DNA of 32,000 nt from Xanthobacteraceae bacterium. GTDB lineage: Bacteria; Pseudomonadota; Alphaproteobacteria; Rhizobiales; Xanthobacteraceae. Each line of letters starts with the position of its first letter. Within the stretch, counting starts at the first letter, position 1. This document shows positions 5,702 through 9,473 of this stretch, piece after piece. The notes under the pieces are model-generated. The model did not search any database, was not told the DNA's origin, and worked only from the letters and a program-made list of their open reading frames with translations. The position numbers and the translations under genes were made by a program. The stretch covers positions 485 to 32,484 of the forward strand of contig DASPVJ010000322.1 of the NCBI GenBank assembly GCA_035622435.1, in the 5' to 3' direction.

Positions 5702-5719
5702 GGCGCGCCTTCTTTCTTA

Positions 5720-5889
5720 TCCCTCCCCCTTGTGGGGAGGTTCGCCCGCAGGAGCGGAGCGAAGGCGGGCGGGGTGGGGGTGCCTCAGATGACGAGCGAC
5801 GGACGAGATGCCCGCCGCCCGTTCTCGCCTTTCTCAATCACCCCCACCCCGCTCCGCCCGCTTTGCGGGCGTCGCGACCCTCGCCACAA
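5720..5889. repeat. REP-type element (CCCTCCCCCTTGTGGGGAGG ... GGGGTGGGGGTG / CACCCCCACCCC ...)
   Basis: Inverted segments GCGGGCGGGGTGGGGGTG (about 5765-5782) and CACCCCCACCCCGCTCCGCCCGC (about 5840-5862). A CCCTCCCCCTTGTGGGGAGG hairpin lies at 5722-5741. The right edge is interrupted by the IS element. Confidence 0.7.
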
Positions 5890-5967
5890 GGGCGATTATC
5901 CCGGACTTGACTTAGGTAGCACAGTATTCTACCGAAGTCTCGACAGGCCGGCCCCTTACCACAGTAC

Positions 5968-6180
5968 CTACCCGATCAACTCGGCCGGCTCGACCCGCAG
6001 CGCGCGGGCCAGCCGGCCAAGCACCACGACCGTTGCCGCAGTAGAACCGCGCTCAATCGAGCCGAGATAGCGCACGCTTATGTCCGCCCGATCCGCCAGC
6101 TCCTCTTGCGTCAGCTTCCTTTCGAGGCGCAAACGCCGCACGTTCGCCGCCATTGCCCGCTTCAAATCCATGGCGGCCAT
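5968..6180 (-). CDS. XRE-family helix-turn-helix transcriptional regulator (about 67-70 aa; IS cargo)
   Basis: MAAMDLKRAMAANVRRLRLERKLTQEELADRADISVRYLGSIERG... is a canonical Cro/C1-type HTH. ATGs occur at 6180 and 6171. The 142-aa TTG-initiated track ORF adds an implausible N-terminal extension. Confidence 0.8.
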   Translation of the reverse strand: MAAMDLKRAMAANVRRLRLERKLTQEELADRADISVRYLGSIERGSTAATVVVLGRLARALRVEPAELIG

Positions 6181-6237
6181 CGGCAGCACGACAGGAACAA
6201 TATTGCCAGGAAGTATACTGCCGACTAGGCTGACGAC

Positions 6238-6528
6238 ATGGACAATCCGCTTGTTGCCATCGTCGGGACCGTCGAAGTCGTCGGGGCGGTTGAACTCGAC
6301 ATCGACGACACGACCTACAGCCACGTCGTCATCCGCGACCGCCGTGGCGAGTTGCGATGCTTCGCAACGGTTCGCGCGGTGCCGGGCATCTCTCAATTGG
6401 TTGAGTCGGAGGCTATCGGGCTGTTTGTCTTTTCAGAAGGGACGGCAGAATGCCGGCTTTGGTGCGTGGTGTGTGAGGATGGCCGTCAGGCGGTGGATTT
6501 CGGGGCGCTGCGGGCACTGGCGACTTAG
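6238..6528 (+). CDS. hypothetical small protein (96 aa; IS cargo), divergent from the XRE gene
   Basis: ATG at 6238. By eye most codons end in G/C, more than in the overlapping antisense frame. I recognise no family and see no clear SD. Confidence 0.45.
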   Translation: MDNPLVAIVGTVEVVGAVELDIDDTTYSHVVIRDRRGELRCFATVRAVPGISQLVESEAIGLFVFSEGTAECRLWCVVCEDGRQAVDFGALRALAT

Positions 6529-6541
6529 GGCTCTCCCGGCT

Positions 6542-7384
6542 CTAAGTGTTCTTGCTGTAGTCGGGATGGTCGAAAGCGCTCAGGCGACCGTCCTTGTCTC
6601 GCCGAAAAATGAATCTGTGTTCGTGTTCCGTGCCGAAGATGTCATTGTAAATTATTCGACCATAAAACCAGAAATAGGTGTGACGGCGGATGATGCTTTC
6701 AGCGTCACGCACGCTCATGCTGGTTGCTTCGCAGGACAATTGCCAAGTCTCCTTATCGGGATCAATGACGCGATCCCGCTCTGTGGGGAGTCCTACGACG
6801 GGCAGATTTCCGGTCAAACAGGCATCCCATGGCGGCGGGGCGGCCCAGTAGGAGAAATCGCGGCAAATAGCTTTCAGGATGGCTGGCGTCTTGCCGTGGT
6901 TTTTGAAGTAGAATCCGACGGTGATTGGAACGGATGGAACAGCATCTTTTTGCAGTCCCTTGCCGGTGATCTCCCGGATGGCGTCCGTCACATTGTCACT
7001 CGCGATCTCGGCGAACATATGCGCCCGCTCGGATTGGGTCAACGCGATAGCGGAATCGTGGGCGGCCAAAGCAGCGACACGGGTTGCGGAAGCAAGCTTA
7101 ACCGTGAAAACGCCGAGAATTGTCGTAAACAGGGCGATGACTACGGTCGAAATAGCGGTGATGGCAGCGTTGTTTTTGTCAACGAAGTCACCAAGGCAAC
7201 CGATGATGAGGCGCATCACGAGGATTTGGGGCGTACGCTCATCTTTGGATTTGCCGCCTGGTTGTGCTTCACTCTTGCTTATGCACTCGTGATAAGATGA
7301 TGATTGGACTACGACAAAACCGAGACATGCGGCACCGATCAAGAGTAGAGCCGCAATTCCTGCTATGCGCGCTGCTTTCAGCAT
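6542..7384 (-). CDS. hypothetical membrane protein (280 aa, two N-terminal TM helices plus soluble C-terminal domain; IS cargo)
   Basis: ATG at 7384-7382 overlaps the transposase stop (ATGCTGA). The TM helices are IAGIAALLLIGAACLGFVVV and AAITAISTVVIALFTTILGVFTV. The C-terminal roughly 180 aa is a mixed soluble domain with no family recognised. Track ORF residues upstream of this Met overlap the transposase. Confidence 0.7.
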   Translation of the reverse strand: MLKAARIAGIAALLLIGAACLGFVVVQSSSYHECISKSEAQPGGKSKDERTPQILVMRLIIGCLGDFVDKNNAAITAISTVVIALFTTILGVFTVKLASATRVAALAAHDSAIALTQSERAHMFAEIASDNVTDAIREITGKGLQKDAVPSVPITVGFYFKNHGKTPAILKAICRDFSYWAAPPPWDACLTGNLPVVGLPTERDRVIDPDKETWQLSCEATSMSVRDAESIIRRHTYFWFYGRIIYNDIFGTEHEHRFIFRRDKDGRLSAFDHPDYSKNT

Positions 7385-8295
7385 CCGTTGATTGCCGCAC
7401 CAAAGATGTCCGCATTCTCTCGATTGTTGTAGCGGAACTGAAATTCCGCGACGTACAGCGGCATGTATTTCTTGCTGACCTTGTGGAACGTGCCGACCAC
7501 GCCGCGCTTGATGATGGACCAAAAGCCCTCAAGCGTGTTCGTGTGGACCGCGCCGACGACGTATTGATGCGCGGAATGGTCAACGGTTTTGTGCGGATAG
7601 TCGGTAAGGTTCCTGTATCCAGAGTGCTGGTCCGTGCAGAGCAGGCTGACTTTGTCGGATACGGCTTCGCGGACGAAACCTTCCATCGTCGCGGTATCGG
7701 TGTTCTCGATAACCCGCGCGACGACATTGCCCTTCCGGCGCACGGCGCCGATGATTGCTGTCTTACCGGAACCGATGCCGCCGGTTCCACCGCCGCGTTT
7801 ATCCCAATGTTTGTTATACCATTTGCCGCCGACGAAAGTTTCGTCGACCTCTACAATGCCGCCAAGCCTTTCCATGTCGTTCTCGATCAGTGCGACGCGG
7901 ATGCGATGGCACATGTACCAAGCGGTTTTGTAGGAACCGAAGCCCATGTAGCGATAGATTTGCAGGGCCGACATGCCCTTTTTGCTGGTCAGCATCAGGT
8001 GCGTGACCTTGAACCAATCCCGCAACGGCTTGTTCGTGTTCTCGAAAATCGTACCGGCAATGTGCGAGAACCGATAGGTCGTATCGGGTGCGCACTGGCG
8101 GCATTGCCAATGAAAGGCCATCGTCGAAACCGGGCGCGGGTCCGGCGCTCCGCAGCGCGGGCAATGCACCCCTTCCGGCCAGCGGCGCGCCACAAGGTAG
8201 CGGGCACAAGCCTCTTCGTCCGGGAAAAAGGCTTCGAATTGAGGTTCGCTAAGCTGGTGAACCGGCTTCGGCCGGGCGCTGCGCTTGCGGGCCAT
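7378..8295 (-). CDS. IS1595-family (ISXO2-like) DDE transposase with N-terminal zinc ribbon
   Basis: Motifs FFPDEEACARYLVARRWPEGVHCPRCG...WQCRQC, VEVDETFVGGK and HTNTLEGFWSIIKRGVVGTFHKVSKKYMPLYVAEFQFRYNNR. ATG at 8295 sits 6 nt downstream of GGGGAGGG. Confidence 0.93.
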   Translation of the reverse strand: MARKRSARPKPVHQLSEPQFEAFFPDEEACARYLVARRWPEGVHCPRCGAPDPRPVSTMAFHWQCRQCAPDTTYRFSHIAGTIFENTNKPLRDWFKVTHLMLTSKKGMSALQIYRYMGFGSYKTAWYMCHRIRVALIENDMERLGGIVEVDETFVGGKWYNKHWDKRGGGTGGIGSGKTAIIGAVRRKGNVVARVIENTDTATMEGFVREAVSDKVSLLCTDQHSGYRNLTDYPHKTVDHSAHQYVVGAVHTNTLEGFWSIIKRGVVGTFHKVSKKYMPLYVAEFQFRYNNRENADIFGAAINGC

Positions 8296-8396
8296 TGGAG
8301 TCCCTCCCCGTGATCGGTAGAACAATCCTACCGCGTCCGGGAGCGGAAGTCAAGTCCGGGATAATCGCCCCCCACAAGGGGGAGGGTAAGCGCGGC

Positions 8397-9473
8397 CTAT
8401 TTCACCACCAAGTCCAACTGCAGCGCTTCGTTGAACGGCACGGCGGAATGGGCGATGCCGTTGCCGGCCGATTGGCCGTCGCCGCTCACCGTATAGAGCC
8501 GGTCGCCGATGACGCCGACGGCGAGGCCGTGGCGCGGATGCGGCATCGACGGCAGTATCTGCCAGCGGTTGAGCGCGGGATCGTAGATTTCCACCGCCTT
8601 GAACGCGGCGAGCAGGCGGCGGTCCTGGAACTCGCCGCCCGGCACCAGGATGCGCCCGTTGTAGACGCCGCCGCCGATGGCGCTGCGCGGCGTCGGCATG
8701 CGCTCGCGCACGGTCCAGGCGTCGGCTACGGGATCGTACATTTCGACGAGATCGATGTTGTTGCTGCCGCCGGAAATGAACGCCGCGCCGATGCGCCCGC
8801 CGATGGCGTAGATCTTCTCGCCGACCGTGGCGACGGCGTGATGGTTGCGCGCGACCAGCAGGGGCGCGCGCGCGCGCCAGGCATTGGTCGCCGGATCGTA
8901 TTCCTCGACGGTCGCGAGCACGTGGTGGGCGCGGGTCGGATGGATGCCGGTTTCGCTCGACCCGGGCAGCGAATTGGCGCCGCCGGTGACGTAGATCTTG
9001 CCGTCGACGACCGCCGCCCCCGCCGCGCCGCGCTTGGTCGGCATCGGCGCCAGCGCCTTCCAGCTGTCGGCCGCGGGATCGTATTCCCACGCATTGTCGA
9101 GGGGGCGCCAGGCGGGCGGCCCGGAATCCGGCAGGGTGAAGCCGCCGAACGCGTAGATCTTGTCGTTGAGCATGGCGAAGGCGACGTGATGCGAGGGCAG
9201 CTGCATCGGCTTCTTCTGCGCCCATTTGTTGCTCGCCGGGTCGTATTCGTAGACCAGCGCCTTCGGCGTCCAGTTGGGGCCGATGCCGCAGAAGACGTAG
9301 AGCTTGCCGGCGGCAACGGCGCCGAGCACTTCCTCGGACGGGTCCGGGAACGGCGCGAGGATGACCCACGGGGCGGCCGCCGTCGGCGCCGGCGCCTGCG
9401 CGCGCGCCACGCCGAGCGCGATGATCGTGATCGCGAGCGCGCCGGCGATGATGCGAGCCGCGCGGCTCGTCAT
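8397..9473 (-). CDS. Kelch-repeat (beta-propeller) protein, secreted
   Basis: Signal peptide MTSRAARIIAGALAITIIALGVARAQA. Repeated GKLYVFGG / DKIYAFGG / GKIYVTGG / EKIYAIGG / GRILVPGG / DRLYTVSG blades each carry a YDPxxxxW motif. The rest of the 859-aa track ORF is a spurious extension. Confidence 0.88.
   Translation of the reverse strand: MTSRAARIIAGALAITIIALGVARAQAPAPTAAAPWVILAPFPDPSEEVLGAVAAGKLYVFCGIGPNWTPKALVYEYDPASNKWAQKKPMQLPSHHVAFAMLNDKIYAFGGFTLPDSGPPAWRPLDNAWEYDPAADSWKALAPMPTKRGAAGAAVVDGKIYVTGGANSLPGSSETGIHPTRAHHVLATVEEYDPATNAWRARAPLLVARNHHAVATVGEKIYAIGGRIGAAFISGGSNNIDLVEMYDPVADAWTVRERMPTPRSAIGGGVYNGRILVPGGEFQDRRLLAAFKAVEIYDPALNRWQILPSMPHPRHGLAVGVIGDRLYTVSGDGQSAGNGIAHSAVPFNEALQLDLVVK

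Follow-up and report, generated by a model that had tools for sequence, protein, structure and literature searches.

The 32,000-nucleotide stretch of DNA analysed here (the window, meaning the whole stretch; contig DASPVJ010000322.1 of the Xanthobacteraceae bacterium assembly GCA_035622435.1) carries a 2.48-kb insertion sequence (IS) of the IS1595 family, in which a transposase gene and, immediately downstream of it, a cargo gene for a predicted membrane protein lie within one pair of perfect 24-nt inverted repeats (Table 1). The open reading frame (ORF) of this second gene is a passenger of an intact IS1595-family transporter insertion sequence (tIS), and it is this gene, its protein and the large protein family around it that concern us here.

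The transposase is full length, matching the Pfam families PF12762 (DDE_Tnp_IS1595, 8.5e-38) and PF12760 (Zn_ribbon_IS1595, 1.6e-10) as well as NCBIfam NF033547 (transpos_IS1595, 1.1e-60), the last with positions 1–215 of 215 covered. A DDE domain with a zinc ribbon, bounding repeats and an 8-bp target duplication, the features that define the IS1595 family, are all present, and the cargo gene and two further genes, coding for an XRE-family regulator and an OB-fold protein, all lie inside 5890–8370, as in a tIS. Intact copies of a repetitive extragenic palindromic (REP)-like hairpin elsewhere in the genome read GCGACCCTCCCCACAAGGGGGAGGGTAAG, from which it follows that the element inserted into such a hairpin and duplicated 8 bp; since its ends, GGG/CCC, run into a target that is itself G/C-rich, its limits can be placed only to within 1–3 nt.

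The composition of the element is foreign to its surroundings, with a G+C content of 52–60% against approximately 70% in the flanks, and a G+C content at third codon positions (GC3) of 0.61–0.74 in its genes against 0.91–0.93 in the flanking genes. It occurs once in this 644-contig genome and in none of nine same-genus genomes, four of which have the left-flank gene at 84–88% identity. The foreign G+C and GC3, the single copy and the absence from all nine relatives together indicate a recent acquisition. An empty site was not demonstrated in the same-genus genomes, which share the left-flank thiolase gene and lose synteny at the REP cluster.

In its single DDE transposase with an N-terminal zinc ribbon, its 8-bp target duplication and its passenger genes downstream of the transposase, inside short repeats beginning GGnnATTAT, the element resembles IS1595 tIS of the ISNwi1 type; the GGnnATTAT end is what we take to be the signature of the ISNwi1 group of ISfinder. 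Insertion sequences are usually regarded as transposase-only. Passenger-carrying tIS are nevertheless a described class, which the literature confines to two families, IS1595 and IS66 (TnCentral preprint 10.1101/2021.05.26.445724; Siguier, Gagnevin & Chandler 2009, Res Microbiol 160:232, as cited in that literature). An earlier, sequence-only reading of this locus had called the coupling of a membrane protein with an IS transposase unusual, which does not hold for the class, IS1595 being one of the two tIS families. The tIS literature covered, outside the 2009 IS1595 paper and the ISfinder entries, makes no mention of a conserved gene overlap, of the size of a passenger family, of passenger mosaicism or of passenger survival past transposase decay. 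The element fits the known tIS class; its passenger family is large, unnamed and fast-changing.

The same reading had described a 280-residue ORF running from an ATG at 7384–7382 to a frame end at 6542, with the ATG inside the sequence ATGCTGA and overlapping the transposase stop codon (TGA, 7380–7378), and our inspection agrees on each point, the minus strand reading ...AAC GGA TGC TGA. No Shine-Dalgarno sequence was seen by direct reading 5' of position 7384. The public gene call for this cargo is a 224-residue protein starting at M57 (6542–7216), which lacks the conserved first transmembrane (TM) helix. Because that helix and the cysteine-containing loop behind it are retained in homologues of 270–318 residues, and because the first 56 codons have ratios of nonsynonymous to synonymous substitution rates (dN/dS) below 1 (0.16–0.65), we take the 280-residue form to be correct, and the M57 start in the public record is likely a start-codon mis-call.

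The two genes had also been proposed to form one translationally coupled operon. The passenger status of the cargo and the repeats that it shares with the transposase bear out part of this proposal, as does the recurrence of the overlap in many independent relatives; translational dependence is still a prediction made from the sequence. According to our model, a single transcript would cover transposase and cargo, and, since no Shine-Dalgarno sequence precedes the cargo, its translation would proceed by termination and restart, with ribosomes ending on the transposase and restarting 4 nt upstream at the cargo ATG. Cargo output would then be small, in step with a low level of transposase.

Table 1. 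Features of the IS1595 element and its insertion site, in window coordinates.
Feature	Position	Strand	Basis or remark
Target-site duplication, left copy, CCACAAGG	5884..5891	.	8-mer repeated at 8372-8379; within REP-like hairpin
Terminal inverted repeat, cargo end, GGGCGATTATCCCGGACTTGACTT	5890..5913	.	24 nt, 100% complementary to 8347-8370
XRE-family helix-turn-helix (HTH) regulator, extra passenger	5968..6186	-	Pfam HTH_3 5.9e-16; start perhaps ATG at 6177
OB-fold gene, 96 residues	6238..6528	+	Divergent from XRE gene, convergent with cargo gene; absent from the sequence-only reading
Hairpin with 10-bp stem where the cargo and OB-fold genes converge, a possible terminator for both	6523..6547	.	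Consensus scan; within chance expectation
Cargo (passenger) gene, 280 residues, the gene under study	6542..7384	-	ORF reading and family profile
ATGCTGA, overlap of cargo start and transposase stop	7378..7384	-	Direct reading
IS1595-family DDE transposase, 305 residues	7378..8295	-	GGAGG Shine-Dalgarno sequence before ATG
Promoter-like site, TTGACT / 17 nt / TAGGAT, with -35 box inside inverted repeat	8325..8353	-	Consensus scan only
Terminal inverted repeat, transposase end	8347..8370	.	Pairs with 5890-5913
Target-site duplication, right copy, CCACAAGG	8372..8379	.	Direct repeat

A passenger family tied to IS1595 transposases

A word-index search recovered only 19 relatives of the cargo protein; a full profile search retrieved 12,847 sequences at E <= 1e-3, each representing a cluster at 50% identity (3,171 at E <= 1e-10). 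The closest relative (locus L010), with a cargo 48% identical to that of the window, lies within a 2,021-bp element that has homologous inverted repeats and an 8-bp duplication reading TCATTTGG or CCTCATTT. This minimal element consists of transposase and cargo only and has no XRE gene.

A transposase, or a decayed C-terminal remnant of one, stands directly upstream of the cargo in L005, L007, L010–L012 and L049–L053. At several loci (L011, L012, L007, L005/L006, L009 and L049–L053) gene callers had annotated no transposase or a mere fragment, and there the C-terminal end of a transposase (...FQFRYNNR..DIFG.AI.GC*) can still be translated from the DNA immediately before the cargo gene. These remnants are often frame-shifted or reduced to 15–40 residues, and end in the overlap GGATGCTGA or GGATGTTAA; in L007 a remnant of the inverted repeat is retained beyond the cargo gene. 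An overlap of start and stop codons, formed by ATG or TTG with TGA, TAA or TAG, occurs in L007, L011, L012, L024, L028, L050, L051 and L052.

Surveying a class-wide sample of 401 genomes, in which transposase linkage was scored within 1.5 kb, we found a family member in 17, with IS1595 transposase sequence near about 10 of the 19 distinct loci. In metagenomes, 62 loci were assessable, having at least 200 nt of upstream sequence, and 23 of these had transposase sequence: in 15 a transposase or its remnant reads in the direction of the cargo, in 7 the orientation is divergent, and in 1 the sequence lies elsewhere. The background is 3–9 IS1595 transposase matches per genome of 3–6 Mb, well below 1% per gene. 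The possibility that homologues are never linked to transposases, which the sequence-only reading had named as one that would speak against it, is thus excluded by the close relatives, the class survey and the metagenome loci alike; linkage to IS1595 transposases is a hallmark of the cargo family.

The family also occurs in a second architecture, without coupling between cargo and transposase: the immediate upstream neighbour of the cargo is a small gene for a DUF6471 protein, and beyond it there is often an IS1595 transposase in divergent orientation that is only about 28% identical to that of the window. At least 16 loci have a DUF6471 gene ahead of the cargo match, among them an IMG/VR viral contig. 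A literature search on DUF6471 and ISNwi1 yielded nothing useful.

Three side observations concern these loci. The DUF6471 product is HTH-like, and its gene precedes a cargo-family gene at L008:5745-6852, L146:2031-3204 and 14 further loci. In L008:1610-7334, from a metagenome-assembled Xanthobacteraceae genome, the IS1595/DUF6471/cargo block has a dprA gene on one side and a separate DprA_N fragment on the other, suggesting insertion into or beside dprA. Paired or tandem family members occur at G188:C22:50737-54549, G399:C39:78306-79513 and G283:C431:7526-8755, and in two of these three pairs one copy has an internal stop.

Protein architecture and divergence

The cargo protein had been described as having two N-terminal TM helices about 45 residues apart and a soluble C-terminal part of about 180 residues, and both descriptions are accurate. 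Hydropathy places TM1 at 7–27 and TM2 at 75–97, a spacing of 47 residues, with 183 soluble residues after TM2. The full layout is TM1, a cysteine-containing loop (28–74), TM2, an Ala-rich stalk to residue 118 and an immunoglobulin (Ig)-like beta-sandwich (123–270). An AlphaFold2 (AF2) model built from 18 homologues has a mean predicted local distance difference test score (pLDDT) of 79, with values of about 90 in the C-terminal domain and 45–70 in the loop. It comprises TM1, the ill-defined loop, a short helix (53–70), one long helix (72–118) that merges TM2 with the stalk, and the beta-sandwich, which holds three inserted helices.

Positive charges flank the membrane segments (K3 and R6 at the N-terminus, K96 and R102 after TM2), the loop between the helices contains two cysteines that are present in many aligned relatives, and TM2 is Thr/Ser-rich. 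The Ala pattern of the stalk (A105, A107, A108, A112) is conserved, which suggests helix packing. Only N162, G164 and D248 are invariant across the wide family, and from the alignment these look structural. The sequence LIGAAC in TM1 could suggest a lipoprotein signal, a reading that we dropped because homologues do not keep the motif.

The sequence-only reading could assign the protein to no family, and our searches concur. The window protein gave only sub-threshold noise against Pfam, NCBIfam, PADLOC and PHROGs (TRP, FliC_D2, FtsL), and a sequence profile search of the PDB gave no significant match, MotB appearing at E 0.65 only. Across 56 diverse family members, Pfam returned no family for any, and PHROGs nothing except one weak match to phrog_9607. 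Foldseek against the PDB retrieved generic Ig-like sandwiches (TRAP beta/delta, ApaG, LEA, TMEM106B) with TM-scores of 0.2–0.3 relative to the query, and these matches are too generic for a function to be read from them. Among viral models, the top fold match was a membrane protein of Rhizobium phage RHEph01, aligned over its full length (E 4e-7, 301 columns). Membership of the LEA_2/WHy group is not indicated, with no Pfam LEA_2 match and a fold resemblance at ranks 20 and 45 only.

Divergence is much faster in the cargo than in the transposase. Six intact elements share 64–84% identity in their transposases and 24–52% in their cargos, and in two elements with 84%-identical transposases the cargos align across only 46 columns; the window transposase is itself 64–74% identical to the transposases of cargo-carrying relatives. 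The divergence is also modular. Residues 1–112 of the window cargo are 52–77% identical to proteins P0007, P0009, P0010 and P0013, whose C-terminal domains are only 17–19% identical to it, whereas residues 113–280 are 42–56% identical to P0002–P0006, whose N-terminal parts match at only 13–54%. The window cargo is mosaic in structure, its two parts being a membrane module and an Ig-like domain.

The position behind the transposase can also hold a different protein altogether. In a 1.84-kb sibling element (L148:1374-3213), whose transposase is 81% identical to that of L045, the slot is occupied by a non-homologous 222-residue protein, likewise with two TM helices and a soluble C-terminal domain; membership of the cargo family was ruled out for it by an hhalign probability of 0.1 against the family. 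The cargo family itself shows dN/dS values of 0.11–0.29 across pairs, including copies next to a decayed transposase, and in many genomes a lone, low-GC3 cargo gene stands between native genes. The cargo is intact and under purifying selection after transposase loss.

Possible roles of the passenger

Taken as a whole, we see it as an even call that the ORF is a passenger of an intact and recent ISNwi1-like IS1595 tIS sitting in a REP hairpin, is translated by restart and is most likely a conflict-type membrane protein. Its product would reside in the inner membrane with both termini inside, the two-cysteine loop being periplasmic and the Ig-like sandwich cytoplasmic, and the Ala-rich stalk probably drives oligomerisation. 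The cargo would benefit host or element in its own right and not by serving transposition, most likely in a conflict such as the exclusion of phages or mobile elements, or abortive infection, where the variable cytoplasmic domain would serve recognition and the TM and stalk module would act as anchor or effector.

The conflict role itself, exclusion or abortive infection with recognition by the variable cytoplasmic domain, we hold only tentatively. It is favoured because the gene persists without its transposase, changes quickly and in modules, and has its slot refilled by analogous proteins, and also because of the tandem paralogues, the phage look-alike and a PIN-domain cargo in another IS1595 element (L055). 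Phage and plasmid superinfection-exclusion and entry-exclusion proteins are small, fast-diverging inner-membrane proteins of mobile elements, and the cargo resembles them in being small, fast-diverging, predicted to be in the inner membrane and carried on a mobile element, with a look-alike in phage RHEph01. It differs from them in that no sequence relation to named exclusion proteins was found, and in that an IS has no entry step of its own to exclude. The RHEph01 look-alike, annotated 'transmembrane protein' (UniProt L7TMN9), matches the cargo over its full length as a predicted structure; at the sequence level, a family member on an IMG/VR contig matches phrog_9607 (9.4e-7), and of the 56 members only one reaches it.

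Another point of comparison is the CBASS protein Cap15, which Duncan-Lowey and colleagues in 2021 reportedly described as an abortive-infection effector made of two TM helices and a beta-domain. Like it, the cargo begins with TM helices, has behind them a compact, all-beta domain that the predicted topology places in the cytoplasm, and is carried on mobile DNA. Unlike Cap15, with its minimal barrel, the cargo has a larger Ig-like sandwich with inserted helices; moreover, the element contains no cyclase or other signalling partner. Neither does a cyclase occur in the loci of relatives or a PADLOC model match the protein, which speaks against membership of the Cap15 type.

Several points weigh against reading the cargo as a restart-translated conflict protein. 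The coupling is deduced from nucleotide sequence, and the positive-inside rule is the sole ground for the topology. The wider family conserves no catalytic-looking residues, and the fold offers no functional handle. Approximately 60% of the 62 assessable metagenome loci have no detectable transposase. The best match of the window protein to the defence models of PADLOC-DB v2 has an E-value of 0.06, two relatives have none, and tblastn with the single window protein against phage and plasmid collections returned no match. Finally, the fast divergence could reflect weak constraint and not an arms race.

The strongest of the alternatives, though we find it rather doubtful, is that the cargo simply hitch-hikes. 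It would have no conflict role but an everyday function in the envelope or under stress, such as that of a LEA-2-, ApaG- or TRAP-like binding domain tethered to the membrane, and its link to the IS would go back only to one or two ancient captures followed by fast neutral drift. The generic Ig-like fold matches (TRAP beta/delta, ApaG, LEA, TMEM106B) and the absence of a defence-model match are in keeping with this, as are metagenome sources that are all soil or sediment and dN/dS values of about 0.2–0.3, which indicate moderate constraint only. Against it stand the association repeated in two IS1595 subgroups that are only about 28% identical and differ in gene order, and the tandem paralogues of some genomes; module shuffling and slot replacement are, besides, typical of conflict genes.

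Quite improbable, in our judgement, is a transposition accessory or regulator that would bind the transposase, sequester it, or govern when or where transposition takes place, with the coupling fixing stoichiometry. A conserved stop/start overlap among relatives would suit such a protein, as would a family found near-exclusively with IS1595 transposases in two architectures, the second of which places an HTH-like DUF6471 gene between divergent transposase and cargo. We disfavour it because the gene stays intact and constrained where the transposase is a remnant of 15–40 residues, and because a close sibling element has an unrelated protein in the slot. A cargo identity of 24–52% beside a transposase identity of 64–84% is likewise unlike the pattern expected of interacting partners, and the IS1595 family includes plain, cargo-free elements of about 1.1 kb, which also counts against this role.

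Less probable still is an addiction module, in which a membrane toxin would kill cells that lose the element and the XRE and/or OB-fold protein would be the antidote or repressor. Small two-TM proteins are common toxins, an XRE gene lies within the same element, and L055, an IS1595 element with an XRE/OB-fold pair, has a PIN-domain gene. Addiction with the XRE protein as partner is nevertheless disfavoured because the minimal 2.0-kb relative (L010) has transposase and cargo alone inside its repeats. No obligate partner gene of the toxin–antitoxin kind was found, no XRE or OB-fold homologue occurring in any other cargo locus among those surveyed; the cargo stands as an isolated gene in many genomes, and the XRE/OB-fold pair is also found without the cargo family.

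A gated, channel-like pore recalling KirBac-type channels is the faintest possibility, for while the order of TM1, helix 53–70, TM2 and beta-sandwich in the model, the Thr/Ser-rich TM2, the Ala-rich stalk and KirBac chains among the weak Foldseek matches (ranks 40–50, E ~0.03, 189–212 aligned columns) are reminiscent of one, none of the 56 members matches Pfam IRK, the loop reads GCLGDF with no GYG-type filter (TxGYG), its pLDDT is 45–70 and the KirBac TM-scores are 0.23–0.28.

Of the four roles that the sequence-only reading had put forward, transposition accessory and addiction are therefore disfavoured, and exclusion or defence is the best guess that remains. A broader proposal, which we advance as speculation that is probably wrong in at least some part, is that the IS1595 lineage keeps a cassette-like slot behind the transposase stop, supplied by translational restart, swapping and recombining modular two-TM proteins through it, and that the 12,847-cluster family is a new and widespread class of membrane proteins acting as single genes in exclusion or abortive infection. 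A conserved membrane and stalk module would then be combined with a swappable recognition domain, spread by minimal transposons and retained after the death of the transposase.

The window offers a clean case of a minimal IS that also encodes a passenger protein, one whose very large family is nameless in the databases. The tie to the transposase, the speed of change and the survival past transposase decay suggest that the passenger serves the host or the element. If exclusion or defence is its role, a function could be given to thousands of soil-bacterial 'hypothetical membrane proteins', and IS1595 elements would count among the known carriers of defence genes. A database entry for the family is merited even with no function assigned, and the transposase-remnant signature upstream of its members is a useful marker for old IS insertions.

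Additional passengers and the REP-like target

Since L010 holds transposase and cargo alone, the XRE and OB-fold genes of the window are an addition to the minimal element. The OB-fold gene has 26 homologues of 59–72% identity and 94–124 residues, mostly 95–98. The AF2 model of its 96-residue product has a pLDDT of 91 and forms an all-beta barrel, whose closest fold matches are small single-stranded-DNA-binding (SSB) proteins, with weak scores (E 7e-3). A 142-residue ORF that prolongs the XRE frame upstream (5968..6396) was rejected in view of the 26 conserved homologues of the 96-residue gene on the opposite strand.

The XRE/OB-fold pair also occurs in L054 and L055, and the window XRE protein is 79% identical to the one at the equivalent position in L055, a different IS1595 element; the pair seems to be a module that recurs at the ends of such elements. 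The L055 element (L055:3668-6814) spans 3.15 kb between the repeats GGGGAATTATCACCTTGACATAGTA, and has a transposase only 38% identical to that of the window. Besides the XRE/OB-fold pair, it encodes a PIN-domain protein (Pfam PIN 5.4e-7) and a soluble protein of 288 residues, with the divergent pair adjoining the cargo-end inverted repeat as in the window. The 288-residue gene was tested for membership of the cargo family and does not belong to it.

The REP-like family with the core given above is found in the window at 5712–5895 and 8370–8397, and has many copies both across this genome and in same-genus genomes. The L055 element is likewise inserted in a REP-like hairpin (CCCCCGCAAGGGGGG), so that two independent IS1595 insertions are found in hairpins of this kind, which hints at a target preference.

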